NCBI GenBank assembly: GCA_965248355.1 | Contig: OZ252098.1 | Location: 2,656,001-2,720,000 of the forward strand | Origin: Candidatus Latescibacterota bacterium | GTDB taxonomy: Bacteria; Latescibacterota; UBA2968; UBA8231 | Length of the DNA stretch: 64,000 nucleotides | Direction of reading: 5' to 3' | In this document: in pieces, positions 1,427 to 23,720 of the stretch | How positions within the stretch are numbered: the first letter of the stretch is position 1 | Layout: each line of letters starts with the position of its first letter | Position numbers and translations under genes: made by a program | The notes under the pieces: model-generated | Told to the model about the DNA's origin: nothing | Seen by the model: only the letters and a program-made list of their open reading frames with translations | Databases searched by the model: none

Positions 1427-2106
1427 TCATGATGCATCGCCGTCCTATCGTCGCATTGATCCTCGCCCTTGTTGGCGTGAGGGGGATCAGTGCCGAGGAG
1501 AGACGGACGGTCACCTTGGGTGGTTGGCCTGCTGACAGTCGCCGAGAGTGGAGGAGCTGACCCTTATTCCATAATGTTCCTGAGGCCGGCTCAAGGGGGC
1601 GGGTATGAGTCTGCGGCCTATCTGGACACAACCTATAGAGCCATATGGTGGATCGGCAGTAACGCTAGGAACTTCCCGGATCCGCCAACGGGACAAAACG
1701 CGTGGGTATTCTGGGATGTCTCCTCCGTAGGGTTCAAGATGGGGGTTCCGAGCGAGGACTTCCCCTCCCAGTTCACGGCCACCGCGTCAATCGAGAACGC
1801 TGTCGATGCTTGGGACGATATCGAGTCGAGTGTGCTCAGTCTCACCTATGACGGCTTGGATGTATACCTGGCCAACGATCCCGGAGACGACGTAAATGTC
1901 ATCTTCTGGGCCAGCCACTCCAGTCTGGATACAGATAACCTCAATGGTCTTACCCTGATCACGACACCCATCAGCGGTGATGACATCGGAGAGTTCTCCG
2001 ACGTTGATATCGTCCTCAACGAGCGGAAGCGCTGGACGACGGTCCTATCCCGTTGTAGGCCAGGTACCGCCGGCGCAGACTACGTGGATACGCTTGATGT
2101 TCAGAG

Positions 2107-3530
2107 GGGCAAGTCCCATTTTCAGTTGAAACGTAGCCCAGGCTCGAGTGGATGAGTCAGCCCGTCATCGCGAGCTGCTGGATGCCGAGCTCGGCTTGGA
2201 GCGCTTGCCGGAGCATCGGCAGGTGGTGGTAGCCGTTGATCCGGCGCAGGCGAGGTTCGATGTCAAGCAACGCCGTGGCGACCCAGCGGTGACGCTGCGA
2301 CGAGTTGGTCCAGCGCCGCACGTTGTGCGTCAACTGCTCCAGGAGACTGTTGACGTTCTCGATACAGTTGGTGGTACGGAAGGAGGCCTTCAGCATCGGC
2401 ATCAGGCCCAGGCGGTGGAGCGTGAGGGTTTCTTGCTGGCCTTCCTCCAAGCTGCGCAGGGCCGACTGGTTCATCAACTGCAACCCCGGTTTCAGCGCCT
2501 CCAGGGCGGCTTGGGCCTCCTCGTACGTCGAGTGCCCATACGCCGCTTCCAGCTTTCGACGAAGGCCGGCCTGCTCGCTCTTGGGCAGGTACGAGACCAC
2601 GTTCTGGCGCTTGTGATACTGGCATCGCTGCACGCAGGCATGGCCCTGGAGCACCGACCGCACCGCCTTGTACAGGCCCTTGCCTCCATCGATCACCACG
2701 AGCAGCCCGGCTTCGTATTGCAGGCCCCGCTCGACCAGCTCCGCCAGGAAGCGGCGACAGACGCGCTCGTTCTCGGTGGCCGCCTGCACGAAGCCCAAGG
2801 GCACCTTCTGGCCCTCCAGAGTCACACCCAGGGCGATGAGGATCTCCTCGTCGGCGAAGCTCTTGCCGTCCAGAAACAGCGCCACCAGGTCGTAGCCTTC
2901 CAAGGATCGCTGCTGGAATTCGGCCAGCTTGCGCGCCGTGCCTTTCACGTACCGGCGAGAGACCGAGGAACGGGACAGACCGAAGGCTTGCGGGACGGTC
3001 TCGGCGCAGGCCTCGTAGTTGCGCGTGGCCAAGCCCTTCAGCACCCGCAACAACAGCCCCTGGTCCATCTGCCTCGGCGTCTGCAGGGCCTGATAGGCCT
3101 CCAGCGGGACCTCGGTGCCGCGGACCACATCGCGCACGCGCGGCACCTCGACCGGCAGTTTCTGATCGCCCAGGTACACCGACCCGGCCTGCGCCCCCCA
3201 GCGGCGCAACGCCTGATCCGGACCCTTGCGCTGATACCGAGGTCCGGCCAAGGCCTCGACCGACTGCTGCAGCTCCTCCGAGACCGCCTGCAGACCCAAA
3301 GGGATCAGCAGCTGGATGACCTCGATGCGAGTCTCCAGATCGTCCATCGACGCGGTGGCTTGGCGGTTCACGGGGCCGATGGCCACGGTCCGTTTGACGC
3401 CCTTCTTCCGTGCTTGTAGCTTGCTCATGGCAGGCTCCTTGGGTTACCGATACGAGGCTTCTTGGGGATTTCTCGTATCAAACGTAACGATGGGAGCCTG
3501 TGCTATTTCAACTAAGATCGGGACAATGCC
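2107..3530 (-). mobile_element. IS256-family element, copy 1
   Basis: Imperfect terminal IRs gggcaagtcccattttcagttgaaa / tttcaactaagatcgggacaatgcc. 8-bp TSD gttcagag at 2099-2106 and 3531-3538. Confidence 0.93.
2157..3428 (-). CDS. IS256-family (Mutator-like) DDE transposase
   Basis: LFLDG, VIDGGKGL, QRCQYHK and RTTNCIE motifs. Confidence 0.93.
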   Translation of the reverse strand: MSKLQARKKGVKRTVAIGPVNRQATASMDDLETRIEVIQLLIPLGLQAVSEELQQSVEALAGPRYQRKGPDQALRRWGAQAGSVYLGDQKLPVEVPRVRDVVRGTEVPLEAYQALQTPRQMDQGLLLRVLKGLATRNYEACAETVPQAFGLSRSSVSRRYVKGTARKLAEFQQRSLEGYDLVALFLDGKSFADEEILIALGVTLEGQKVPLGFVQAATENERVCRRFLAELVERGLQYEAGLLVVIDGGKGLYKAVRSVLQGHACVQRCQYHKRQNVVSYLPKSEQAGLRRKLEAAYGHSTYEEAQAALEALKPGLQLMNQSALRSLEEGQQETLTLHRLGLMPMLKASFRTTNCIENVNSLLEQLTHNVRRWTNSSQRHRWVATALLDIEPRLRRINGYHHLPMLRQALQAELGIQQLAMTG

Positions 3531-3845
3531 GTTCAGAGCGTCGTGACCCACGAATTGGGACACGCCCTCGGGCTGGGGCATGCCACGGGCGAGAATGCGA
3601 TGACCCCAAGTCAGGTATGGTGTGCGGACGATGACATGAAGGCCAAGTACGAAGAGCCTACCGACGACGGCGACGACGAAGTACCAGCACAGCGGATCGT
3701 CGCCGACGGGGATCAGGACGGATATCAGTATATCTACGTAGGGAACAAGAGCGTGCGCGCCACGTTCGGCGGCGATTCCAGTGACAAAGTCATCGCAGCA
3801 GGCGTGCCGGACGAGAGCGGCGTTGCGCAGGCCACCGTCTTTCCC

Positions 3846-4432
3846 AATCCCTTCAATCCGGAGGTCACGGTCGCCTTCGAGTTGGACCACCCGGCGTCCG
3901 TATCGGTGCGGGTCTACGACGAGGTGGGGCAGCGGGTGCGGGTGCTGGCCGCGGAGGCCGAGCGCCCGGCGGGCTCCTACCAGTTCATCTGGGACGGTCG
4001 CGACCAGGCGGGGCGGCTGCAGGCCTCCGGCACCTACTTTCTGGTGGTCTCGGTCGATGGGACGCCCGAGAGCCACAAGCTGACCCTGCTGCACTGAGGG
4101 AGGAAGGACATGGCAACCCGGCTTCATGGCGTTCTCGCCTTGTGGTGGCTTGCCCTGGCGGCCCCGGTGGGGGCGCTGCCGCCGTGCGGGGAGCCGGGCA
4201 CGATCAGCACCGTGACCGCCCCCGACGGTGGGGACTACCTTGCCGCTTTCAGTGGTTACTTGATCTATCCTCCGGTAGAGGGGGGGTTCCAAGGTGTAGA
4301 TGGCCCTGTCGACCTGGTCGCGGCGCCGGAGTACCGCAGTCACTATCCGAGGTATCTGGCCGTGGGTCCCCAAGGGCGCGTGCATATCGCCGACTGGACG
4401 ATCATCTACCGCCTCGAAGCCGATGGCAGCGC
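3846..4432 (+). repeat. Direct repeat copy A: FlgD tail + stop/RBS + signal peptide and N-terminus of the next gene
   Basis: Near-identical to 5522-6094 apart from a divergent patch near 4252-4320. Confidence 0.9.
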
Positions 4433-6094: not shown

Positions 6095-7266
6095 TAGTGT
6101 CGCGTCCGACAAATGAGTTGTAAAAACAGAGTCAAGGCCTTATCTTCAGGCCATGGCCCGCCCGGTGTCCCGCCTTGAGTTGACCGCGTCCGAGCGACAG
6201 GAGTTGGAGCGTCGCGTCAGGGCCCCCTCCGCGTCCCAGCGCGACAGCCTGCGCGCGGCCATCGTCCTGCGCCGGGCCGAAGGGATCAAGCAGGTGCAGG
6301 TGGCCGCCGAGTTGGGCGCCAGTGTGGCGTGTGTGAACAAGTGGTCGCAACGCTTTGATCGCGAGGGTTTGGCGGGACTGAACGACGCCAAGGGCCGGGG
6401 CCGGCCGGCGAGCTTGCCGGCGGACAAGGTCGAGCAGGTCCTCACCGCGGTCACGCAGCCGCCGAAGCCGCGCACGCGCTGGAGCGTGCGCTCGATGGCC
6501 CAGGCGGCGGGGATGTCGCCGGACAGCGTGCACATCTGGAAGGCCAACGACATCAAGCCCCATTTGACCAAGACCTTCAAGGTCTCCACGGACCCGCACT
6601 TCGAGGAAAAATTCTGGGACGTGATCGGGCTCTACCTGGATCCCCCCGAGCGCGCGCTGGTGCTGTGCTGTGACGAGAAGAGCCAGTGCCAGGCGCTGGA
6701 ACGGACCCAGCCGGGCTTGCCGCTGGGGATCGGCGACATCCGCACCCGGACCCACGATTACAAGCGCCACGGTACGATCACCTTGTTCGCCGCGCTCAAC
6801 TACCTCGACGGCAAGCTCATCGCGCGTCTGGAGGCGCGTCATACCCACGTCGAATGGCTCCGCTTTCTCAAGCAGATCGACCGCGAGACGCCCAAGAACC
6901 TGTCGCTGCACCTGATCGTGGACAACGCCGGCCCCCACAAGGAGGAGAGCGTGCAGCATTGGTTGTCTCGGCATCGGCGCTTCCATGTCCATTTCACCCC
7001 CACCAGTTCCTCCTGGATGAACTTGGTCGAACGGTTCTTCGGCGAGCTGACGCAGGATGTGATTCGGGACGGCAGCTTTGCCAGCGTCGGGGAGTTGGTG
7101 CGCGACATCGAAGCCTACTTGGCGCAGCGGAACTTGGCCCCCAAACCCTACCGCTGGAAGGCCGACGGCGAGACCATCCTGCGCAAGATCCAGCGCGCTC
7201 GGGAGACGGTGGCGGCGACATCGGACAGCCCTTGTTGATTCTTCTTAATTCTCGGACGGGACACTA
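6095..7266 (+). mobile_element. IS630-family element
   Basis: IRs tagtgtcgcgtccgac / ctcggacgggacacta. TA duplication within a CTAG target. Confidence 0.9.
6153..7238 (+). CDS. IS630-family transposase
   Basis: HTH N-terminus plus CCDEKSQCQAL, THDYKRHGT, IVDN and PTSSSWMNLVERFF motifs. Confidence 0.93.
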   Translation: MARPVSRLELTASERQELERRVRAPSASQRDSLRAAIVLRRAEGIKQVQVAAELGASVACVNKWSQRFDREGLAGLNDAKGRGRPASLPADKVEQVLTAVTQPPKPRTRWSVRSMAQAAGMSPDSVHIWKANDIKPHLTKTFKVSTDPHFEEKFWDVIGLYLDPPERALVLCCDEKSQCQALERTQPGLPLGIGDIRTRTHDYKRHGTITLFAALNYLDGKLIARLEARHTHVEWLRFLKQIDRETPKNLSLHLIVDNAGPHKEESVQHWLSRHRRFHVHFTPTSSSWMNLVERFFGELTQDVIRDGSFASVGELVRDIEAYLAQRNLAPKPYRWKADGETILRKIQRARETVAATSDSPC

Positions 7267-9170: not shown

Positions 9171-10470
9171 ATGGACCTCCCATACGAGATTCGAGATCCG
9201 ATTCACGGCTTTATCGGTATCAGCGAGTGGGAACGGGACCTTCTCAACCATCCGGCGCTCCAGAGGCTGAGGCGAATCCGGCAGCTCGGCCTGAGCGAAA
9301 TGGTCTATCCCGGTAGCGTACACACACGGTTCGAGCATTCCCTCGGGGTGATGCATGTCGCCTCGAGAATGTTCAGCGAGATCCGCGTTCGTTCACCGGA
9401 GCTTCTGAGAGAGTTGGGCTACGAGAGGGCCGGGCTGGACCGCCAACATGCGTTGATCCGGGTCACCGCACTGATGCACGACGTGGGACACGCGCCCTTC
9501 TCCCATGCAACGGAGGAGTTGATGGAGGGAGAAGAGGGGGACGTGGTGTCTCACGAGAGATACTCCGCCGGGATAGTGAAGCACGTGCTTCGAGAGGTAA
9601 TCGAAGATCATCCCGTGAACACCGCCAACTACCGCATTCGCGCTGAGGAGGTGACCGGCTTACTTGCAGGTGAGCCCGCGCCCGGACACCAGGAGCTTCT
9701 GTGGCGAGAGCTGATCTCCGGTCAATTGGATGCGGATCGCGCCGACTACCTGCTGCGCGATGCCTTCCATGCGGGGGTGGAGTACGGGAGATATGACCTC
9801 GAGAGGATGCTCGTGTGCCTGCGGCTGGCAATCGATCCGGAGACGGACTCACCCCGGATCGCAATGAGCGCAGGTGGGTGGCACGTTGCGGAGGCCTTCA
9901 TCATTGCGAGATACATGATGTTCACGCAGGTCTATTTTCAGCATACCCGCAGGGCCTATGACAAGCACTGCGTCCTGGCTACGCGGGAGGTGCTTGAGAG
10001 AGATGCGAAGCAGGCAGGCCGGTCGATCGGCGTTGTTGCCATCGGCCAGCGATGCGGACACTCTTTCCGACTATCTCGCCTGGGATGACTGGCGAGTCAT
10101 GGGACGGGTGAAGGAAGGCGAAGGGGGCAAGCACGGGATCGCATTGCTGGAGCGAAAGCACTTCCGGCATGTCTTCGAAACGCCGGAAGTCCCTGAGGAG
10201 AATGATCTCGAGCTCTTCGAATCACTGACCGGCGAACTTGGTGACATGGTCGGATTCGTGGACGAGGCCCAGAGCTCTTGGTACCGCCAGGAGGCTGACG
10301 CCCTGATTGACGGAAAGGATGGAGTGAAGAGGCTCTCGCAGTTGTCGACCATCGTCGGCAACATGAAAGCCGTAAATCGCCACAGAATCTACGTACGGAT
10401 GTCAGATCGCGAACGAGCAGAGCGAATAGTTGCCGACTTCCGAAAAGAAAAGGAGGGAGCAGGCGAATGA
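9171..10470 (+). pseudogene. SAMHD1/YwfO-like HD phosphohydrolase (putative dNTP triphosphohydrolase); frameshift near 10020
   Basis: IRDPIHG, QRLRRIRQLG, HTRFEHSLG, HDVGHAPFSH, DADRADYLLRD and ARYMMFTQVYFQH motifs. The C-terminal part (YLAWDDW) is in the +1 frame and ends at 10470. Confidence 0.82.
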
Positions 10471-12514
10471 GTGAGAGTCCTTTGAGATGCGAGATCCCTT
10501 GGGAGCGCTATGGCCTTATCGCCGCCATAGTCAGGGGACTGCACCCGAGATCACCTCAACTGGGAAAGACGGTTCTGCAGAAGGTCGTTTTCCTGCTTCA
10601 GGACCTTGCCGGCGTTCCCATCGGGTACCGGTTCCAGTTTTATACCTATGGTCCGTTCTCCGTGGAGTTGTTGCAGGACCTGGATTTGGTCGAAGGCCTT
10701 GGGGGTGTGAAGATTCATCGCGTGGTAAGTCTGACGGGTGGGTTTGAAATCTTGCCTGGTGACAGGGCAGATGGCCTCATTCGGAAGGCAGGCAACTGGC
10801 TGAAAGAACAAGGGGCAGACGACGCGATCACCCGGATCGTTGCGGACTATGGCCATCTCTCCGCTCGGGATCTGGAGTTGCGCGCCACGGTCGTCTATGT
10901 GGTGCGAGATCTCGAACTTCAAGGTACGATCGGGGACAACGGTCGTGTGAAGGAAGTCGTCGAGAACTTGAAGCCAAGGTTCGGTGCTCGCGAAATCGAG
11001 GATTCGATCCTGGAACTCGACCGGAAAGGGTATATGCCGGGCAAGTCCCATTCTCAGTTGAAACGTAGCCCAGGCTCGAGTGGATGAGTCAGCCCGTCAT
11101 CGCGAGCTGCTGGATGCCGAGCTCGGCTTGGAGCGCTTGCCGGAGCATCGGCAGGTGGTGGTAGCCGTTGACCCGGCGGAGGCGAGGTTCGATGTCAAGC
11201 AACGCCGTGGCGACCCAGCGGTGACGCTGCGACGAGTTGGTCCAGCGCCGCACGTTGTGCGTCAACTGCTCCAGGAGACTGTTGACGTTCTCGATACAGT
11301 TGGTGGTACGGAAGGAGGCCTTCAGCATCGGCATCAGGCCCAGGCGGTGGAGCGTGAGGGTTTCTTGCTGGCCTTCCTCCAAGCTGCGCAGGGCCGACTG
11401 GTTCATCAACTGCAACCCCGGTTTCAGCGCCTCCAGGGCGGCTTGGGCCTCCTCGTACGTCGAGTGCCCATACGCCGCTTCCAGCTTTCGACGAACGCCG
11501 CCCTGCTCGCTCTTGGGCAGGTACGAGACCACGTTCTGGCGCTTGTGATACTGGCATCGCTGCACGCAGGCATGGCCTTGAAGCACCGACCGCACCGCCT
11601 TGTACAGGCCCTTGCCTCCATCGATCACCACGAGCAGCCCGGCTTCGTATTGCAGGCCCCGCTCGACCAGCTCCGCCAGGAAGCGGCGACAGACGCGCTC
11701 GTTCTCGGTGGCCGCCTGCACGAAGCCCAAGGGCACCTTCTGGCCCTCCAGAGTCACACCCAGGGCGATGAGGATCTCCTCGTCGGCGAAGCTCTTGCCG
11801 TCCAGAAACAGCGCCACCAGGTCGTAGCCTTCCAAGGATCGCTGCTGGAATTCGGCCAGCTTGCGCGCCGTGCCTTTCACGTACCGGCGAGAGACCGAGG
11901 AACGGGACAGACCGAAGGCTTGCGGGACGGTCTCGGCGCAGGCCTCGTAGTTGCGCGTGGCCAAGCCCTTCAGCACCCGCAACAACAGCCCCTGGTCCAT
12001 CTGCCTCGGCGTCTGCAGGGCCTGATAGGCCTCCAGCGGGACCTCGGTGCCGCGGACCACATCGCGCACGCGCGGCACCTCGACCGGCAGTTTCTGATCG
12101 CCCAGGTACACCGACCCGGCCTGCGCCCCCCAGCGGCGCAACGCCTGATCCGGACCCTTGCGCTGATACCGAGGTCCGGCCAAGGCCTCGACCGACTGCT
12201 GCAGCTCCTCCGAGACCGCCTGCAGACCCAAAGGGATCAGCAGCTGGATGACCTCGATGCGAGTCTCCAGATCGTCCATCGACGCGGTGGCTTGGCGGTT
12301 CACGGGGCCGATGGCCACGGTCCGTTTGACGCCCTTCTTCCGTGCTTGTAGCTTGCTCATGGCAGGCTCCTTGGGTTACCGAATACGAGGCTTCTTGGCG
12401 ATTTCTCGTATCAAACGTAACGATGGGAGCCTGTGCTATTTCAACTAAGATCGGGACAATGCCTATATGCCGATGGCTGAGGCGAAGACGCAGGCGGCAG
12501 ACCAGGGGTTGTGA
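10467..12514 (+). CDS. YwgA/Panacea(SocA)-like winged-helix protein; last codons displaced by IS256
   Basis: GKTVLQKVVFLLQ..YRFQFYTYGPFS.EL motif and LELRAT. Starts by ATGA overlap with the HD gene. The pre-insertion end GYMPMAEAKTQAADQGL* overlaps the MTase GTG. Confidence 0.65.
11039..12463 (-). mobile_element. IS256-family element, copy 2
   Basis: Near-identical to copy 1. Has its own 8-bp TSD tatatgcc at 11031-11038 and 12464-12471. Confidence 0.93.
11089..12360 (-). CDS. IS256-family transposase
   Basis: 423 aa with only a few substitutions relative to copy 1. Confidence 0.93.
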   Translation of the reverse strand: MSKLQARKKGVKRTVAIGPVNRQATASMDDLETRIEVIQLLIPLGLQAVSEELQQSVEALAGPRYQRKGPDQALRRWGAQAGSVYLGDQKLPVEVPRVRDVVRGTEVPLEAYQALQTPRQMDQGLLLRVLKGLATRNYEACAETVPQAFGLSRSSVSRRYVKGTARKLAEFQQRSLEGYDLVALFLDGKSFADEEILIALGVTLEGQKVPLGFVQAATENERVCRRFLAELVERGLQYEAGLLVVIDGGKGLYKAVRSVLQGHACVQRCQYHKRQNVVSYLPKSEQGGVRRKLEAAYGHSTYEEAQAALEALKPGLQLMNQSALRSLEEGQQETLTLHRLGLMPMLKASFRTTNCIENVNSLLEQLTHNVRRWTNSSQRHRWVATALLDIEPRLRRVNGYHHLPMLRQALQAELGIQQLAMTG

Positions 12515-13641
12515 AAACAAGCGCTAACGTGACCGCCGGTGATGGCACCGATCTCGGCTTCCTTAACGAGAAATCGGTGGACTTGGTGGTGACCTCACCC
12601 CCATACCCGATGATCGAGATGTGGGACGACGTGTTCCAGCGCCAGAGACCCGCCGCCGAGGGGGCTTTGGCCGCTGGTGACGGTCCGCACGCGTTCGAGA
12701 TGATGCACGAGCTGCTCGATGCGGCGTGGGTGGAGGTTTACCGCGTCCTGCGGCCGGGCGGGGTTGCCTGCATCAATATCGGCGACGCCACCCGCACCAT
12801 TGACGGGGATTTCCGGCTTTATTCCAACCATTCCCGGATCCTGTCCAGCTTACTCGGGATGGGGTTCGTTGCCCTGCCGGACATCCTCTGGCGCAAGCCG
12901 ACCAACGCGCCGAACAAGTTCCTTGGATCCGGGATGCTGCCGGCCGGAGCCTACGTAACCTATGAGCACGAGTATATCCTCATCGTGCGCAAAGGGCCTC
13001 GGCGGGATTTCAGGTCACCCGCGGAGAAGAGCCGGCGGCGGGAGAGCGCGTTCTTCTGGGAGGAGAGGAATCTCTGGTTCTCCGATGTCTGGTGCGATAT
13101 CCGGGGAGCCGGGCAGGAGCTTCTCGACAAGACTTCCCGAAAGAGAAGCGGAGCTTTTCCCTTCGAGTTGGCCTACCGGCTGGTGTGCATGCACTCAATA
13201 AAGGGGGACACAGTGCTGGACCCGTTCGGAGGTACCGGGATCACGGCGGCTGCGGCCCTTGCCGCCGCCCGGAACGCGATCTCGGTAGAACTGGATCCGG
13301 CACTACTGCCGGTGGCTCGGTCACTCCTTCAAGCGCTCCCGAAGTTTGCCAACGAGCATGTCCGGCGGCGTCTTCAGCGCCACGTGGAGTTCGCTCAGAA
13401 CCGAATCGCCGAAGGGGGCGCCTTCAAGCACCTCAATCGGAACTACGGCTTCCCCGTAGTGACGTCCCAGGAGAGAGAACTCCTGCTGAATGATGTCCTG
13501 TCAGTTACGAACGACGATGGTTCGATCATCGCTCAGTACGACGAGGAGCCGCAGTCGGAGTTCGTAAAGGAGTGGACACCTGAAGAAGTGGAGCGGTTCT
13601 CCTTCCGTCCCAGAGAACTCCAGGCTGAGTTGCCTCTGTAG
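12511..13641 (+). CDS. Site-specific DNA methyltransferase, beta class (probably N4-cytosine)
   Basis: VTSPPY catalytic motif N-terminal to the VLDPFGGTG SAM-binding motif. Confidence 0.9.
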   Translation: MKTSANVTAGDGTDLGFLNEKSVDLVVTSPPYPMIEMWDDVFQRQRPAAEGALAAGDGPHAFEMMHELLDAAWVEVYRVLRPGGVACINIGDATRTIDGDFRLYSNHSRILSSLLGMGFVALPDILWRKPTNAPNKFLGSGMLPAGAYVTYEHEYILIVRKGPRRDFRSPAEKSRRRESAFFWEERNLWFSDVWCDIRGAGQELLDKTSRKRSGAFPFELAYRLVCMHSIKGDTVLDPFGGTGITAAAALAAARNAISVELDPALLPVARSLLQALPKFANEHVRRRLQRHVEFAQNRIAEGGAFKHLNRNYGFPVVTSQERELLLNDVLSVTNDDGSIIAQYDEEPQSEFVKEWTPEEVERFSFRPRELQAELPL

Positions 13642-14223
13642 CCCCTCAGAAATCGAACCTGAACGATATACCGTCTTTCTTCTTCTCATAGACGATCATC
13701 TGGGCATCGATAGTCTCCCTTGGGATTCCTCTTCGGCGTCGGCTAGCCGGTAGGAGGTTCCTTTCATTTCGGCGACCCGTGCTATCAGTGCCTCCTGGAA
13801 GCAGAGTCCAGTGAAGGTCTTGACGAGCACCAGATCCTCTACCCATTCACGGATCATCGGCTTGTCGATCAGCAGAATCGCTTCCTGGAGTCTTCCAAGC
13901 ATCGAATAGACACGCTCAGTCGCATTGTCGATTGCGGCCGGTTCTTTTTGGAGATACCAAGCCTTCCACTCCTCGAAGTTTCTTCCAGAGAACTCCGCGA
14001 AGAGATCGGTCATCTGGCCAACAACGCCTGGGCGTGTCCCTCCTGCATTCTGGTTTGCCAGATTCAGGAAGTGTACCCCGTCAACTGGACAGGAATTGGG
14101 CTTGTACAAGCGAGAGTCTCGAGATGTAATGGAGCCGTACTGCGCCCCGGCGCTGGGACCGAAGCCCCGCCTCCCGGACTTGCACCCAGGCCGGGCCACC
14201 GAGGCCGTGAGGAGCCCCCGCGC

Positions 14224-15072
14224 TCAGGCCGCCCGGTGGTAGACATCGCTGGGGGTCTCGTAGTCGAAGGCCTGGTGCGGCCGCTCGAGGTTGTAGAAGC
14301 GGAAGTAGGCCGCCACGCCCTCGATCAACTCGGGGACGCTGTCGTAGGCCTTCAGGTAGATGTCCTCGTACTTCAGGGAGCGCCACAGCCGCTCGATGAA
14401 GATGTTGTCCAGCACCCGGCCGCGGCCGTCCATGCTCACCCGGGCCCCGGCCGCCTCGACCCGCCCGGTGAAGGCGGTGCTGGTGAACTGGGCCCCCTGG
14501 TCGGTGTTGAAGATCTCCGGCCGCCCCTGGCTCAGGGCTTCCTCCAGGGCCTCCAGGCAGAAGGCCGCGTCGAGGGTGTTGGAGACCCGCCAGGCCAGCA
14601 CGTAGCGGCTGAACCAGTCCATGACCGCCACCAGGTAGACGAAGCCGGAGGGCATCGGCAGATGGGTGATGTCGCTGCACCACACCTGGTCCGGCCGGTT
14701 CACGGTCACCCCTCGCAGCAGATACGGATAGACCCGGTGCTGAGGGTTGGGGGTAGTCGGTCGCGGCCGGGGATAGATCGCCTGCAGGCCCAGGGCCTTC
14801 ATCAGGCGGTGCACGCGCTTGGGATTGACCGGGTAGCCGTCCCGCCTCAGGGCCGCGCAGATCCGGCGCACGCCGTAGACCGGGTGCTCGGTGTAGATCC
14901 GGTCGATGGCGTTCATCAGGTCGAGGGTGAGCCGATCCGGCGCCTCCGGGCGGTAGTAGAAACTGGAGCGGGCCAGCCCGAGCAGTTGGCACTGCCGATG
15001 CACGCTCAGCGGGCCGGGGTGCGGCTCGATGAGGGCGCGGCGCTCAGCCACCGAGAGCCTCGTGTTTTTTTT
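14224..15072 (-). CDS. IS3 transposase OrfB (rve integrase core)
   Basis: [16 protein letters not shown] and [15 protein letters not shown] motifs. Confidence 0.92.
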
Positions 15073-15337
15073 GAAGCCACTCCAGTTCCATCTGCAGCCG
15101 CCCGATCTGCTGGTAGAGCTCGGGCACCAAGGCGGCCTCGTCGTCGGCCCGGCGGGTCCCGGGGCCCCGGAAGACCTCGGGCAGCCGCTCCAGCAACTGC
15201 TTCTTCCAGCCGTGGATCTGGCTGGGGTGGACGGAGAACTTGTGGGCCAGCTCGTTGACTGTCTGCCGTTCGCGCAGAGCCTCCAAGGCCACCTTGGCCT
15301 TGAACTGCGCCGAATGCGTCTTGCGTTTCCTCGTCAT
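15044..15337 (-). CDS. IS3 transposase OrfA
   Basis: [19 protein letters not shown] and [15 protein letters not shown]. Confidence 0.9.
15064..15072 (-). promoter_or_regulatory. Programmed -1 frameshift slippery site (A8-C) joining OrfA and OrfB
   Basis: Run of 8 A on the minus strand at the OrfA/OrfB overlap, as is typical of IS3. Confidence 0.75.
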
Positions 15338-15511
15338 CCAAGCCCCTCCGGACAGTGGGTCGGTGGACGCAAAGTCTCGCTTAGCCACCTGTCCAGGATT
15401 TGGGGTACACTACCTCATGATCTGAGTCGTGTACTTTGGAAACTCGGCGACTCGCCCAACCGCGAAGTCGACGATGTCCGCAGTCTTGATCTTGCCAGTC
15501 TGCATTCATCC

Positions 15512-16846
15512 TCAGAACACCGACAGGTAGGTGTCCCGCTCCCAGTCGCTGACCGACTGGTGGTAGGACCGCCACTCCTCGCGCTTGCACTCCAGGTAGT
15601 AGCCGGCGTACTCGAGGCCGAGGGCCTCGCGGATCACCTCGTCCTCCTCGAGCGCGTCGCAGGCGTCGCGCAGGGTCGCGGGCAGGTAGTCGATGCCACG
15701 CTCGGCCAGCTCCGCCTCGGTCAGGTCGTAGAGGTTCTCGTTGTTGCGGCGGCCGGGGTCGGTCTCGTTCTCGATGCCGTCGAGGCCGGCGGCGAGCAGG
15801 ACGGCTGAGGCCAGGTAGGGGTTGGCGGCGCCGTCGACGCAGCGGTTCTCGATGCGGCCGGGCGCCGGGATGCGGATCATCTGGGTGCGGTTGGAGCCGC
15901 CGTAGGTGACGTAGACGGGGGCCCAGCTGGCGCCGGAGCGGGGGGCGCCGCGGGTGAGGCGCTTGTAGCTGTTGACCAGGGGGCCGGTGACGGCCACGAG
16001 GGCGCGGGCGTGGGCCAGGACGCCGCCCATGAAGTGGTAGGCCATGCGCGACAGGCCGCTGGCGTCGCTCTCGTCGAGGAAGAGGTTGGTCTCGTTGGCC
16101 GTGTCCCACAGGCTCATGTGAAAGTGGGCGCCGGTGCCGGTGAGGTCGCTGAAGGGCTTGGGCATGAAGGTGGCCATGAGGCCGCGCTCCTCGGCCACGG
16201 TCTTGACCATCCAGCGGTAGAAGGTGTGGCGGTCGGCCGTGGTCAGGGCGTCGGAGTACTCCCAGTTGATCTCGAACTGGCAGTTGGCGTCTTCGTGGTC
16301 GTTGGCGTACGGACCCCAGCCGAGCTCCTGCAAGTGGCCGATGAGGGTGGTCATGAGGTCGAAGTTGCGGTTGAGGGTGACCAGGTCGTAGCAGGGCTTG
16401 TCGAGGGTGTCGAAGGGGTCGCTGGGCGAGCAGTGGCCGGCCTCGTCGCGCTTGAGGAGCATGAACTCGGCCTCGACGCCGACGTTGAACCGGTAGCCGA
16501 GACCGTGGGCGCGGGCGAGTTGGCGGTTGAGGATGGTGCGCGGGCAGTAGTCGAAGGGCTCGCCCTCGACCTCGAGGTTGCCGGGCACCCAGGCCATGTT
16601 GGGCCGCCAGGGCACGATCATCCCCTGGCCGAAGTCGGCCATGTTGGCCAGCTCGGGGCTGTGGGGGCCCTGGCCCATGTTGCCGGCGGCGAAGCCGGCG
16701 AAGCCGGCGCCCTCGGCGGCCATGTCCTGAAGGTTGGTCGCCGGCACGAGCTTGGCCTTGGGCATGCCGCCCATCTCGACGAAGGAGCACAGGAAGTACT
16801 CGATCTTCTTGTCCTTCACCCACTTCTCCACGTCTCTCAGTTCCAT
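15512..16846 (-). CDS. gmaS: Glutamine synthetase-like gamma-glutamylmethylamide synthetase
   Basis: GAGFAGFAA, GVEAEF, NDHEDANCQFE, TFMPKPF and NRTQMIR motifs. Lies in an NMG cluster context. Confidence 0.8.
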   Translation of the reverse strand: MELRDVEKWVKDKKIEYFLCSFVEMGGMPKAKLVPATNLQDMAAEGAGFAGFAAGNMGQGPHSPELANMADFGQGMIVPWRPNMAWVPGNLEVEGEPFDYCPRTILNRQLARAHGLGYRFNVGVEAEFMLLKRDEAGHCSPSDPFDTLDKPCYDLVTLNRNFDLMTTLIGHLQELGWGPYANDHEDANCQFEINWEYSDALTTADRHTFYRWMVKTVAEERGLMATFMPKPFSDLTGTGAHFHMSLWDTANETNLFLDESDASGLSRMAYHFMGGVLAHARALVAVTGPLVNSYKRLTRGAPRSGASWAPVYVTYGGSNRTQMIRIPAPGRIENRCVDGAANPYLASAVLLAAGLDGIENETDPGRRNNENLYDLTEAELAERGIDYLPATLRDACDALEEDEVIREALGLEYAGYYLECKREEWRSYHQSVSDWERDTYLSVF

Positions 16847-16878
16847 GATCCTCTCCTCGGGGATGCGTTGAAGTTTGC

Positions 16879-17619
16879 TCAGGCCTGCAACTCGCGAAGG
16901 GCGGCGGCGCCGATGGGCGCGATGCCCAGCTCGGCGCCGGCCTCCATGAGGATGTCCCAAACGTAGGCGCCCTGGGCGCGCCCGCCGAGCACGCGAAAGG
17001 CGGGCAAGTCTCCGGCATCGGCGCGCACCACGAGGGCCCTGACGCGGGCCACGCTGGTCTCACGCGCGCGGCGGTCCGGGAAGGCGTCGGCGTCGAAGTC
17101 GAGGCCGCAGACCTTGCTCAGCAGCCGGGGCGCCTCCGGGCCGACGATGCGGTACTCGAAGCGGCCGTGGGTGACGTCGGTGACGGTCACCAGGCCGGGG
17201 GCCTCGGCCGCGGACTCTTCCAAGGCGGCCAGGACCGCTTCCCCCTCTCCGGGGCCGGCGGCCACGAGCAGCAGGTCGGGCCGCAGCCGGCAGGCGGTCA
17301 CCCGGGTCCCGCTCACCTCGCCCAGACGGGGTGCAGGCGAGCCGGTGGCGGCAGCAACCACCCCGGCCGCCTCCTCGCCCATCCGGGGCTCCGTCAAGCC
17401 CGTGGCGGTGGAGACCACCGGCCCGGCCCCCTCGCCCTGCACGAGCAGCTTGGCCCGCGGCGTCTCGTCTCCGAGAGCCACGCCTTCGCGCGCTGCCCGC
17501 TCCTCCACGGCGCCGTCGCCGAAGCGCTCGGGCACGCGCCAACCGCCCACCTCGGTCAGGTGCGCGTCCATTGCCTGCCAGCGGCCGTGGAGGGGGGTCG
17601 CGTACCAGGGACCCGCCAT
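16879..17619 (-). CDS. soxG: Sarcosine oxidase gamma-like / NMG dehydrogenase subunit D
   Basis: VTDVTHG..GPEAPRLLSKVCGLDF motif. Last subunit of the B-D-A-G order. Confidence 0.72.
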   Translation of the reverse strand: MAGPWYATPLHGRWQAMDAHLTEVGGWRVPERFGDGAVEERAAREGVALGDETPRAKLLVQGEGAGPVVSTATGLTEPRMGEEAAGVVAAATGSPAPRLGEVSGTRVTACRLRPDLLLVAAGPGEGEAVLAALEESAAEAPGLVTVTDVTHGRFEYRIVGPEAPRLLSKVCGLDFDADAFPDRRARETSVARVRALVVRADAGDLPAFRVLGGRAQGAYVWDILMEAGAELGIAPIGAAALRELQA

Positions 17620-22285: not shown

Positions 22286-23720
22286 GGTAGTGGCTCAGTT
22301 TGAAAAAACTTACCCAAACGGCATGAAAAAGCCGCTCACCAATCGGGAAGCGGCCCGTAACTCGTAAAGGGTTGAGTCTGGGGGCTATTCGGTCGAGGGG
22401 TAAACCCGCTGCCTCCGGTGGTGGCGGGGACCAGCCAGTAAATTCAAGGCCGCAAGGTGGCCTTGATGCGGGCCCAGGTAGTGGACTCGACGGCTGTGTC
22501 CGATCCCACCAGGATACCGTGTACGAATACATCAACCTCGTCCCCTGGGCCCGGGTCCTCTGGAATGTCATGCAAGTAGAACTGACCACTCCCTCTGTCG
22601 TCGTGGTCCCAATCGAAAACACCCAGGATGAATCCCATGACCTGGCCGGGTTCGAACGTGGAAATTTCGCTTCCGTCGGGATCGGACTGGATCATGCGAT
22701 CGAAGGCCGTGACGTAGAACTCGACAGTCCACAAAGCGGTTTCGTCGTCCAGGACAGAGCCCGCTCCAAATGCGTAGGGAAGTTCGACGACCCAGTCGCT
22801 GTCAGCGACGTACGGAAACCCTACTAGACCCCACCGATCTGAGTAGGGTTTGACCTCGTAATACTGAGCATGGGAATTATTCCTCGGGAACCTTCCGCCA
22901 GAATGGTCTCCGTCCACCATCAGGGCGACGTGATCGGACAGCTCGTGAAAACGGCTATCGTCTGTGTTTCGGTACACGTCATCTGAAGCCTCGATGGCGA
23001 CGTACACCTTGCCGTGGTCGGACCAAGCCATCCAGGCGCGGAAATCCAGGTTTGCGGGATCGTATTCGCCGTGCGGCGGATCGTAGTGCCAGGACAGTTC
23101 GAAGTCGAGCCGCGTCACGATGGGTTCCCCGAACAGGTCTTTCCAATCAGCCAGATCACCATCCACAGTCAACTGGTCCGCGGATACGTAGGGGATGGAG
23201 AATACTCGGTCTCCCACGTGCGCGCTGGCCTGGGTTGATAGGATTTCCAGCAGCAGCACCAAGACGATCACCATGAGTCCCTCCTGTCGAACAGCTCGAC
23301 CACATCGGCCAAATGACAAGTGTTCTTCAGACGCTTCGACGCTTGATACCGCTCCGAAGTTTCGACCCCGACCATAACCCGTAAGCCCAGATTCCTGCCC
23401 TGCGTTGGACCCGGCGGCTGAAGCAAAGACCTGTTTTGCCGAGCACCAGGAAACGTCCGTCTGTCCTCGCCAACCACGAAACCCGAATCCAACGCTTGGA
23501 GGCTGCTGTCGGATGAGCAAGGGACGACTGTCCTGGACAGGTTACAAAGGAGCAACGCCCGCCGATATAGGCCGGCGTTGCTGCGTAAGAAGTCGCCCAA
23601 GGCCACCCAGACCGCTTTCCGAACATAGCGCCACTACGTGCTGCATCTGCTGCAAAGTGTCGCTGCGCGATGGTCCCGGCTCCGGCAGCAAGAAAGCTTT
23701 TTTCAAACTGAGTCACTACC
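22286..23720. mobile_element. Non-autonomous mobile cassette with IS1-like ends
   Basis: IRs ggtagtggctcagtttgaaaaaa / ttttttcaaactgagtcactacc. 8-bp TSD cgccgccg at 22278-22285 and 23721-23728. No transposase inside, and visibly lower GC. Confidence 0.85.
22444..23274 (-). CDS. Secreted protein, DOMON/CBM9-like, with C-terminal TAVESTTWARIK motif (cassette passenger)
   Basis: AGGAGG RBS and signal peptide. VDGDLADW, VYVAIEASDD and DGDHSGG motifs. Confidence 0.7.
   Translation of the reverse strand: MVIVLVLLLEILSTQASAHVGDRVFSIPYVSADQLTVDGDLADWKDLFGEPIVTRLDFELSWHYDPPHGEYDPANLDFRAWMAWSDHGKVYVAIEASDDVYRNTDDSRFHELSDHVALMVDGDHSGGRFPRNNSHAQYYEVKPYSDRWGLVGFPYVADSDWVVELPYAFGAGSVLDDETALWTVEFYVTAFDRMIQSDPDGSEISTFEPGQVMGFILGVFDWDHDDRGSGQFYLHDIPEDPGPGDEVDVFVHGILVGSDTAVESTTWARIKATLRP

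Follow-up and report, generated by a model that had tools for sequence, protein, structure and literature searches.

A conserved gene pair of an HD hydrolase and a YwgA/Panacea-like partner as a candidate nucleotide-depletion module, found broken in a decaying Latescibacterota defence islet

In a stretch of 64,000 nucleotides from a Candidatus Latescibacterota bacterium (GCA_965248355.1, contig OZ252098.1, positions 2,656,001 to 2,720,000; hereafter the window), a gene for an HD-domain hydrolase is followed directly by a gene for a small YwgA/Panacea-like protein, and both lie next to a type II restriction-modification (R-M) pair. An earlier note, made from the sequence alone, had taken the first two genes for an anti-phage module coupled to the R-M methyltransferase. 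This raises the question whether the two genes form a unit, what such a unit would do, and whether the methyltransferase belongs to it. The feature studied here extends from the start of the HD gene (9171) to the start of the endonuclease gene on the minus strand (15505). We find that the pair is akin to known systems, not categorically new, and that it is non-functional in the window. Our reading, to which we give about even chances, is that of a PanAT-like module, in which a toxin resembling the deoxynucleoside triphosphate (dNTP) triphosphohydrolases (dNTPases) SAMHD1 and EF1143 is held by a binding partner of the DarG C-terminal-domain/Panacea type, and which, in its mobile lineages if not throughout, acts as an accessory defence by nucleotide depletion.

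Eighty loci, spread over about 20 phylum-level groups, came from a single scan of species-representative genomes with an alignment of the partner protein; HD genes at these loci were detected with hidden Markov models (HMMs) built for this analysis. An HD gene lies directly upstream of the partner gene, on the same strand, at 72 of the 80 loci, or 72 of the 73 that can be tested: at seven loci the partner lies within 350 nt of a contig end, and L026 is the only locus that has room for an HD gene and lacks one. These 72 loci show the bicistronic arrangement by which PanAT pairs are recognized, mostly with an overlap or a short gap. Stop and start codons overlap at 48 of them, in 26 cases in the 4-nt form, while the genes are 3-27 nt apart at 20 loci and further apart at four; with 48 of 72 relatives overlapping, the chaining of the two genes is far beyond chance. 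The window carries the 4-nt form, ATGA at 10467-10470, in which the partner ATG (10467) shares bases with the TGA stop of the HD gene (10468-10470). When both alignments were supplied, complex prediction of HD protein and partner yielded scores of 0.83, 0.84 and 0.82, while the best of three controls scored 0.00. This score expresses model confidence and is silent on whether the partner inhibits or activates the enzyme; the prediction passes the mark set for it, which 116 of 157 solved complexes and 2 of 215 mismatched pairs attain. In the predicted complex, the partner has a predicted local distance difference test (pLDDT) value of at least 84 and the runs share at least 67% of their contacts. 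The interface involves invariant or near-invariant residues of the partner (K34/T35, Y59/Y61/G62, A133/E137 and K169/P170), and a conserved loop (221-229) as well as the C-terminal region of the HD protein. The two proteins are thus predicted to bind each other directly, and the two-component pair proposed in the earlier note stands as an obligate two-gene module.

The upstream gene (9171..10470, plus strand) is of the COG1078/YdhJ type (Pfam HD, 1.5e-11; HD_assoc_2, 5.4e-6). Against chains in the PDB, the protein matched 2hek at 6.8e-44 and EF1143 of Enterococcus faecalis (2o6i) at 3.8e-40, the latter covering residues 7-306, as well as 2q14 and 9mr6, and it matched SAMHD1 chains at 5.5e-19 to 7e-16. 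With matches to EF1143 at this level and to SAMHD1 at about 1e-18, its initial description as a SAMHD1-like HD hydrolase holds. No variation was seen among 46 HD relatives at H56, H103-D104, H107, H112, H128, D187 and D189, and hardly any at E129 (conserved in at least 90% of rows); the conserved histidines and aspartates for metal binding and catalysis are shared with EF1143 and SAMHD1. The first reading frame of the window gene retains H56, H103, D104, H128, E129, D187 and D189. The Clover preprint (PMC12265719) names an HD motif and an HE dyad as features of dNTPases, and from these residues and homologies we infer dNTP triphosphohydrolase activity for the family. The models of catalogued defence dGTPases matched far less well: the PADLOC dGTPase model covered only residues 26-118 (7.1e-10), the NCBIfam antiphage_dGTPase model reached 24.6 bits against a cut-off of 400, and no full-length match above cut-off to such models was obtained in either collection. 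Because the Dgt-type models match only weakly and partially, we place the protein in the EF1143/SAMHD1-like branch (COG1078, HD_assoc_2), unlike the Dgt-type dGTPases known from defence. EF1143 and SAMHD1 themselves are under oligomeric and allosteric control, and in the literature covered no partner protein is named for either of them, which sets them apart from the enzyme considered here.

The downstream gene encodes a protein of the YwgA/SocA-Panacea/DarG-C-terminal-domain-like kind, an assignment based on the reading of the sequence, on its homologues, and on an AlphaFold 2 (AF2) model and its Foldseek comparison. Several of its 72 homologues carry the source name 'uncharacterized protein YwgA', and one is named 'Panacea domain-containing'; these names, together with weak matches to SocA_Panacea (PF13274) in 16 of 44 aligned relatives (best 3.4e-6), bear out the YwgA/Panacea-like character that had been ascribed to it. 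One relative, P0038, has PF13274 in its precomputed annotation. Bacillus subtilis has a ywfO-ywgA pair, to which the source names of relatives suggest a link. The family is large: clustered at 50% identity, it comprises 283 groups at E<=1e-30 and 1409 at E<=1e-10, and almost all members among the 150 clusters listed of the 283 are stand-alone proteins of fewer than 200 aa. The PADLOC DarG model aligned residues 13-184 of the window partner to model positions 164-325 of 329, its C-terminal half (9e-8), and the NCBIfam DarG model likewise matched through its C-terminal half (1.9e-4). In line with this, the AF2 model (pLDDT 91.7) had as its only strong structural matches, and its top PDB matches, 7yk3_B and 7yk3_D, the DarG chains of a DarTG complex, with a template modelling (TM) score of 0.61 and a probability of 1.00. 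Since a search of PDB chain sequences with the partner profile gave nothing meaningful (best E 0.41, to monellin), the resemblance to DarG in the PDB is found only by comparing folds. The DarG C-terminal domain is the part that binds the toxin DarT. The sole longer protein retrieved with the partner profile contains a Macro domain, as DarG does; no fusion of HD and partner was found among the longer proteins retrieved with this profile, which is weak evidence of absence. According to Pfam, the window partner and its 44 relatives carry neither a Macro domain nor a nucleotidyltransferase domain.

Could the chemistry be of another sort, with the HD enzyme acting on a signalling nucleotide, an NTP or a nucleic acid, and with the partner perhaps being a DNA-binding winged-helix regulator? 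The closest structures (2hek, 2q14 and 9mr6) were deposited without a function in their names, the NCBIfam dGTPase models fell far below their cut-offs, and the fold matches that follow DarG are PadR/MarR-type regulators. These regulator folds are weak matches (TM 0.3, E>0.03) next to the TM of 0.61 for DarG, the invariant residues of the partner map to the predicted interface of the two proteins, HD and HE motifs are both preserved in relatives, and the HD protein matches a characterized dNTPase, EF1143, over residues 7-306 as well as SAMHD1. We therefore regard such alternative chemistry as hardly credible.

The arrangement and the partner fold recall several described systems. Like PanAT (PMC8832971), the pair combines a small partner, tied to the Panacea superfamily by the weak matches of some relatives, with an upstream candidate toxin gene, with the order toxin-then-antitoxin and the 4-nt overlap, and direct binding, which for our pair is a prediction. 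Five HD(YdhJ)-PanA pairs appear among the predicted toxin-antitoxin pairs that Kurata et al. 2022 (PMC8832971) give in Dataset S1; their toxins, named 'HD domain-containing protein' (CDD YdhJ), form cluster T34, and all are labelled 'notest'. They come from Ammonifex, Desulfofundulus and three Caldicellulosiruptor, have the order toxin-then-antitoxin and are spaced by -4, 0, -17, -17 and +23; two further pairs are flagged there as not conserved. The main text of this paper makes no mention of T34. One of our own HD relatives (P0102), from Desulfofundulus, derives from a contig of 1996 nt, as does one of our partners (P0058), which suggests that they lie on one contig. The T34 pairs stem from thermophilic Clostridia, whereas the pair surveyed here spans about 20 phylum-level groups and occurs inside defence systems; the two sets are likened by annotation, not by sequence. 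DarTG (7yk3) resembles the pair through the toxin-binding, C-terminal half of DarG, but our partner has no macrodomain, there is no DarT, and the enzyme encoded upstream is an HD hydrolase.

A functional precedent is provided by Clover (PMC12265719), a two-gene defence system of the dNTPase CloA and the nucleotidyltransferase CloB, which is described as restraining the dNTPase through a nucleotide signal until infection. In Clover and in dGTPase defence (Tal et al. preprint) alike, an enzyme of the HD superfamily acts on nucleotides, as the presumed effector of our pair would. Our partner differs from CloB in having a DarG C-terminal-domain-like fold and no nucleotidyltransferase domain; since it is a binding protein, control of the enzyme would go through protein contact and not through a nucleotide signal. 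None of the models in PADLOC-DB v2 or NCBIfam claims the pair; PADLOC gave for it only weak and partial matches, to dGTPase (7e-10) and DarG (9e-8). We also found no paper on YwgA, COG3465, COG1078 or ywfO that describes the pair as a system, and a 2026 survey of dGTPases (PMC13519002) deals with fusions and oligomers, without mention of the partner in the passages covered. The earlier remark that no description of the pair as a defence system was known thus survives for the catalogues searched, PADLOC-DB v2 among them, and has to be qualified for the literature, given the five pairs already predicted as toxin-antitoxin systems in Dataset S1 (PMC8832971).

In the window, both genes of the pair are broken. 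The HD gene is a pseudogene that reads in two frames, 9171-10088, which ends at a stop, and 9958-10470. An intact relative of 431 aa (P0073), 100% identical to the window protein over the 282 residues queried, corresponds to the first frame in its residues 1-285 and to the second from there to its end. Since P0073 matches both frames residue for residue, the window gene has four additional nucleotides at about 10026-10029, which shift the frame after residue 285. The partner gene retains its first 191 codons in place (10467..11039), and its displaced end of 13 codons and a TGA stop lies at 12473..12514; between them sits an IS256-family insertion sequence (IS) at 11040..12463, in the 3' end of the gene. 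When this element and one copy of the target duplication are removed in silico, the 191 codons (10467-11039) and the 13 codons (12473-12511) join into a frame of 204 aa, whose length and C-terminus agree with those of the relative P0001 (205 aa). The element encodes a transposase on the minus strand (11089-12360; Pfam Transposase_mut, 3.9e-36). Its terminal inverted repeats are imperfect, a target duplication of 8-9 bp lies at 11031-11039 and 12464-12472, and its left edge falls at 11039/11040. These ends could be fixed by alignment with a second copy of the element at about 2107-3530, which is about 99% identical and has an 8-bp duplication of its own. This second copy appears to split a gene (1490-4097), of which the downstream piece (3543-4097) has FlgD_ig and secretion-sorting-tail domains and the upstream piece (1490-2155) has no Pfam match and a guanine-cytosine (GC) content of 0.57.

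Disruption is not confined to the window: the HD gene is broken at 10 of 72 and the partner gene at 4 of 80 relatives. We observed the HD gene to be split into two to six open reading frames (ORFs) at nine of the 72 (L001, L003, L004, L039, L050, L064, L068, L073 and L074), and at L059 only a remnant of it is left, behind an AbiEi gene. Some of these splits may be assembly errors (indels) in metagenome-assembled genomes from long reads.

Downstream of the pair, the methyltransferase gene (12511..13641, plus strand; N6_N4_Mtase, MjaI/MthZI type, Pfam 4.5e-35) is apparently intact. Its product matches the PADLOC MTase_II model at 1.2e-142, with residues 1-346 on model positions 1-341 of 352, and is 50% identical over 327 aa to the methyltransferase of pFZ1, a plasmid of Methanothermobacter (NC_001337.1). 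Facing it on the minus strand is a gene for an MjaI-family endonuclease, so that a type II R-M pair of an N6_N4 methyltransferase and a convergent RE_MjaI endonuclease is present, with the endonuclease disrupted. The convergent MjaI-type endonuclease that the first reading had seen is thus there, but its gene is split after codon 30 by an IS3-family element (14067..15414, minus strand; orfA 15044-15388 and orfB 14224-15051; Pfam HTH_Tnp_1, rve and HTH_21). This element has inverted repeats at 14066-14093 and 15388-15415 and a 3-bp duplication, TGA, at 15415-15417 and 14064-14066; like the IS256 element, it combines a transposase of its family with terminal inverted repeats and a target duplication. 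The 5' part of the endonuclease gene (15415..15505) comprises 30 codons from an ATG at 15505 to 15416 and matches residues 21-33 of the pFZ1 endonuclease. The 3' part (13646..14066) matches Pfam RE_MjaI at 1e-41 over profile positions 5-120 of 164; its current frame stops at 13696 and an alternative frame at 13646. A tblastn search with the pFZ1 endonuclease placed residues 34-149 in one frame and residues 175-190 in another, and from this one distant comparator we conclude with moderate confidence that near 13720 about 25 codons have probably been lost and the frame has changed. Neither the C-terminus in the alternative frame nor the 31-aa N-terminal piece has a Pfam match, both being placed only by means of pFZ1. 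R-M systems of the MjaI/MthZI family are specific for CTAG. The endonuclease is 49% identical to that of pFZ1, where the two genes are likewise convergent and also overlap (L081, 1399-3063), and where the endonuclease gene is free of the IS3 insertion and apparent internal damage seen in the window. As an archaeal plasmid and the bacterial window share these genes at 49-50% identity, the R-M pair has crossed domains.

The four genes have a GC content of 0.56-0.61, against 0.68-0.75 in the flanking genes, which include an S15 peptidase, a glutamine-synthetase-like and a sarcosine-oxidase-like gene. The low GC content marks them as a small acquired islet; this islet of about 4.3 kb was acquired horizontally and consists of the HD-partner module and the MjaI/MthZI-type type II R-M pair. 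Two observations of the earlier note are confirmed here, namely the block of lower GC content and the chain of overlapping stop and start codons through HD, partner and methyltransferase genes, with GTGA at 12511-12514 joining the partner stop TGA (12512-12514) to the methyltransferase GTG (12511). Neither the module nor the endonuclease is functional in the window: the HD gene carries a frameshift, IS256 truncates the partner and IS3 splits the endonuclease. With these three genes disrupted, an orphan methyltransferase remains.

Is the methyltransferase nevertheless part of the system? One might imagine HD protein, partner and methyltransferase, with or without the endonuclease, as one machine, in which for instance the dNTPase would be released when methylation or restriction fails and the GTGA overlap would be functional. 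The overlap of the partner and methyltransferase genes, the low GC content common to all four genes, and the presence of methylation-based systems at 12 of the 19 loci with defence contexts described below would fit such a machine. The GTGA overlap, however, was seen in the window alone. A homologue of the window methyltransferase occurs at just one of the 80 loci (L009, upstream of the pair and with an XhoI-type endonuclease), and the MjaI endonuclease at none, as is the case for the S15 peptidase and the glutamine-synthetase-like gene. Where methyltransferases do accompany the pair, their families vary (MjaI type, XhoI-associated, type I, PglXI, type IIG), as does their position upstream or downstream. 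At 60 loci no methyltransferase model matched within two genes, nor did any Pfam DNA methyltransferase, and the pFZ1 R-M pair lacks an annotated HD or partner gene in its 3.3-kb stretch. The coupling to the R-M methyltransferase put forward in the earlier note is therefore not conserved, and we consider a single machine of this kind very improbable.

For the genomic contexts of the relatives, we analysed two genes on each side of the pair, comprising 268 proteins from 79 loci, with Pfam, and with PADLOC at E<=1e-12. PADLOC models matched 46 of the 268 proteins. Setting aside six generic matches (an ATP-binding cassette transporter at L010, a helix-turn-helix protein at L024, a sigma-54 activator at L048, a methyltransferase at L072 and two UvrA pieces at L074) leaves 40 proteins at 19 of the 79 loci. 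In three of these (L006, L014 and L018), the pair sits between BrxC and PglXI of a type 3 bacteriophage exclusion (BREX) system; the order at L014, where the set is full, is BrxF-BrxC-[HD-partner]-PglXI-BrxH-PglZ-BrxA. Parts of BREX type 3 also flank the pair at L013, L020 and L022, with only BrxC on the contig at L022. Type II R-M genes lie directly upstream at L009 and L021, a methyltransferase gene follows the pair after 7 nt at L056, a type I R-M system and DpdA are near it at L005, and type IIG genes or fragments at L075 and L076. Methylation-based systems are thereby found at 12 of the 19 loci (L005, L006, L009, L013, L014, L018, L020, L021, L022, L056, L075 and L076). At L039 the pair is flanked by DrmMI, DrmA and DrmB of a defence island system associated with restriction-modification (DISARM), and at L049 it is followed by the cyclase and two-transmembrane (2TM) effector of a cyclic-oligonucleotide-based anti-phage signalling system (CBASS); further neighbours are SIR2, OLD/GajA-like, BrxL, GmrSD-like and AbiEi proteins. 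In the window, none of the BREX type 3 genes (BrxF, BrxC, PglXI, BrxH, PglZ, BrxA) was found between about 1 and 25 kb.

Two of these loci deserve a remark of their own. At L076 (311-3055), N-terminal and C-terminal fragments of type IIG/ISP R-M genes flank the pair, which looks as if it had been inserted into such a gene or had replaced its middle. In the pair-bearing BREX type 3 operon at L006, a PsyrT/PsyrA pair follows PglXI (13738-17133), and at L018 a PDC-M45B-like gene occupies this place; BREX type 3 operons thus seem to hold cargo at two slots.

From these contexts one could go further and propose a widespread anti-phage system, uncatalogued in the collections searched, in which a SAMHD1-like dNTPase is clamped by a stand-alone relative of the DarG domain that binds the toxin, and in which this partner serves as the infection-sensitive switch. 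The module would have been recruited repeatedly as a second line within methylation-based immunity, both at the BrxC/PglXI slot of BREX type 3 operons and next to R-M systems of types I, II and IIG. The pair would then be a bacterial equivalent of SAMHD1 whose control runs through protein contact, not through nucleotides. We put this forward tentatively, as a proposal that we would sooner doubt than assert.

A phylogeny of the HD proteins bears on how mobile the pair is. In a quick maximum-likelihood tree of 66 HD proteins, members of about eight phyla stand together on short branches in a well-supported clade of 13 (Shimodaira-Hasegawa-like approximate likelihood ratio test, SH-aLRT, 96), which contains five of the six BREX-embedded and three of the six R-M-adjacent copies. 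Other clades, of Acidobacteriota, Planctomycetota, Chloroflexota and Alphaproteobacteria, follow taxonomy, as would be expected of a vertically inherited cellular gene. Judging from these sequences, the family comprises a mobile, defence-lodged part and stably inherited lineages.

Those latter lineages belong to a series of observations that weigh against a defence function. No defence model matched within two genes of the pair at 60 of the 79 loci, and the closest relatives of the window pair (L001-L004) have UxuA (sugar-acid), oxidoreductase and PhyH neighbours. In five Chloroflexota species the pair is kept between holA/rpsT and plsX, and MreB, GyrA, CarB, UvrA and RNase E/G are found as neighbours elsewhere. 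As a distance control within the same loci, PADLOC models matched 15 of 148 genes at least 6.5 kb away (10%), compared with 46 of 268 nearby (17%, or 15% after filtering). Defence genes make up a few percent of a genome at most; as genes 6.5-10 kb away also match often, the enrichment is regional rather than sharply local. The partner had no match in a phage collection and a single weak one in a plasmid collection (Haloarcula, 30% identity over 54% of the query). HD and partner genes are broken at similar rates per kb, which gives no indication of the 'toxin' being lost before its partner. The window partner has no PF13274 match even at E 0.05, and no Pfam match at all, and in this falls below the detection that places PanAT antitoxins in the Panacea superfamily. 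Finally, the literature search returned nothing on the activity, toxicity or phage response of any family member, and the complex score, as said, leaves the direction of control aside. The expectation that such pairs would sit in defence neighbourhoods thus holds for 19 of the 79 loci and not for the other 60, with the closest relatives and the Chloroflexota group in metabolic or housekeeping surroundings.

In five Chloroflexota loci we also noticed a gene of 591-592 aa without a Pfam or PADLOC match, which starts at or just inside the partner stop (L023:10555-12330, L030:10572-12347, L032/L033:10549-12327, L034:10543-12321) and may be a third component in this lineage. A relative of it (629 aa) lies upstream of the pair in the Latescibacterota locus L004 (5302-7191).

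Alternatively, the HD enzyme could be a regulator of cellular dNTP pools, as proposed for YwfO, EF1143 and Dgt, with the partner as its regulatory subunit and defence neighbours being incidental. The 60 loci without a defence match, the synteny with holA, rpsT and plsX, the metabolic neighbours in Latescibacterota and the clades that track taxonomy all speak for such a role. A Dgt-type dNTPase reportedly promotes cell-cycle progression in Caulobacter (PMC12186491), and YwfO has been discussed as a nucleotide-sanitizing enzyme of minimal genomes (PMC4993169). A housekeeping role sits less well with the presence of the pair in BREX type 3 operons at six loci from different phyla and beside R-M, DISARM and CBASS genes, or with its cross-phylum spread on short branches of the HD tree. 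Its context is almost never conserved, with 390 neighbours within three positions falling into 349 clusters; in the window it lies in a low-GC islet together with an R-M system; and it is dispensable, being broken in the window and in at least nine relatives. On balance we hold a purely housekeeping role to be unlikely, though deserving of serious consideration.

The same mobility could also serve the pair itself. As a type II toxin-antitoxin system, a PanAT with an HD toxin, it might stabilize the DNA that carries it, including R-M and BREX islands, without a direct antiviral role. The order toxin-then-antitoxin, the 4-nt overlaps, the predicted complex and the prediction of such pairs as PanAT in Kurata et al. 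2022 (PMC8832971) would suit addiction, and so would the company of mobile DNA: integrases at L005, L043 and L077, transposases at L002 and L032, and PsyrTA and MazF neighbours at L006 and L029. The pair is, however, nearly absent from the plasmid and phage collections and holds stable chromosomal positions in several lineages, and dNTPases related to the HD enzyme have roles in defence (Tal et al. preprint; Clover, PMC12265719). Selfish addiction alone therefore appears rather improbable to us. Addiction and abortive defence are not sharply separated, so that the two explanations do not exclude each other.

How, then, would a PanAT-like nucleotide-depletion module work? The HD protein would be a dNTP triphosphohydrolase of the SAMHD1/EF1143 kind, whose unchecked activity would drain the dNTP pool. 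Its partner would be a stand-alone protein akin both to the C-terminal domain with which DarG binds its toxin and to the antitoxin domain SocA/Panacea. Produced by translational coupling, it would bind the enzyme directly and restrain it. On infection, or after some other disturbance, the enzyme would be released, and the loss of dNTPs would halt the replication of phage DNA. The module would be an accessory that lodges in BREX type 3, R-M, DISARM and CBASS neighbourhoods, without a lasting tie to any one methyltransferase. Inhibition, and not activation, of the enzyme by its partner, the trigger of its release and the protection against phages are parts of this scheme that we infer.

Two further features of the window lie outside the islet. 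An IS630-family transposase gene (6153..7238, plus strand; Pfam DDE_3, HTH_32 and related domains), 2 kb upstream, is given as context only; it has a short ORF on one side and the S15 peptidase gene on the other, and with it four IS elements lie inside 15 kb. An ORF at 22444-23520 on the minus strand (358 aa) has no Pfam match and a GC content of 0.58 in surroundings of about 0.72, and may be a foreign gene.

For the organism, the window represents a small, IS-ridden, decaying defence islet with an orphan methyltransferase; intact copies of the pair exist in relatives and are fit for cloning tests. Phage protection by the pair, if true, would add a second HD dNTPase branch to bacterial nucleotide-depletion immunity, and this EF1143/SAMHD1-like branch stands nearer to the human restriction factor than that of the Dgt-type dGTPases. 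Such protection would likewise introduce a new restraint on such enzymes, with a DarG/Panacea-type binding protein taking the place of Clover's nucleotide signal, would reveal a place for cargo within BREX type 3 operons, and would give a function to the large, uncharacterized YwgA (COG3465) family.

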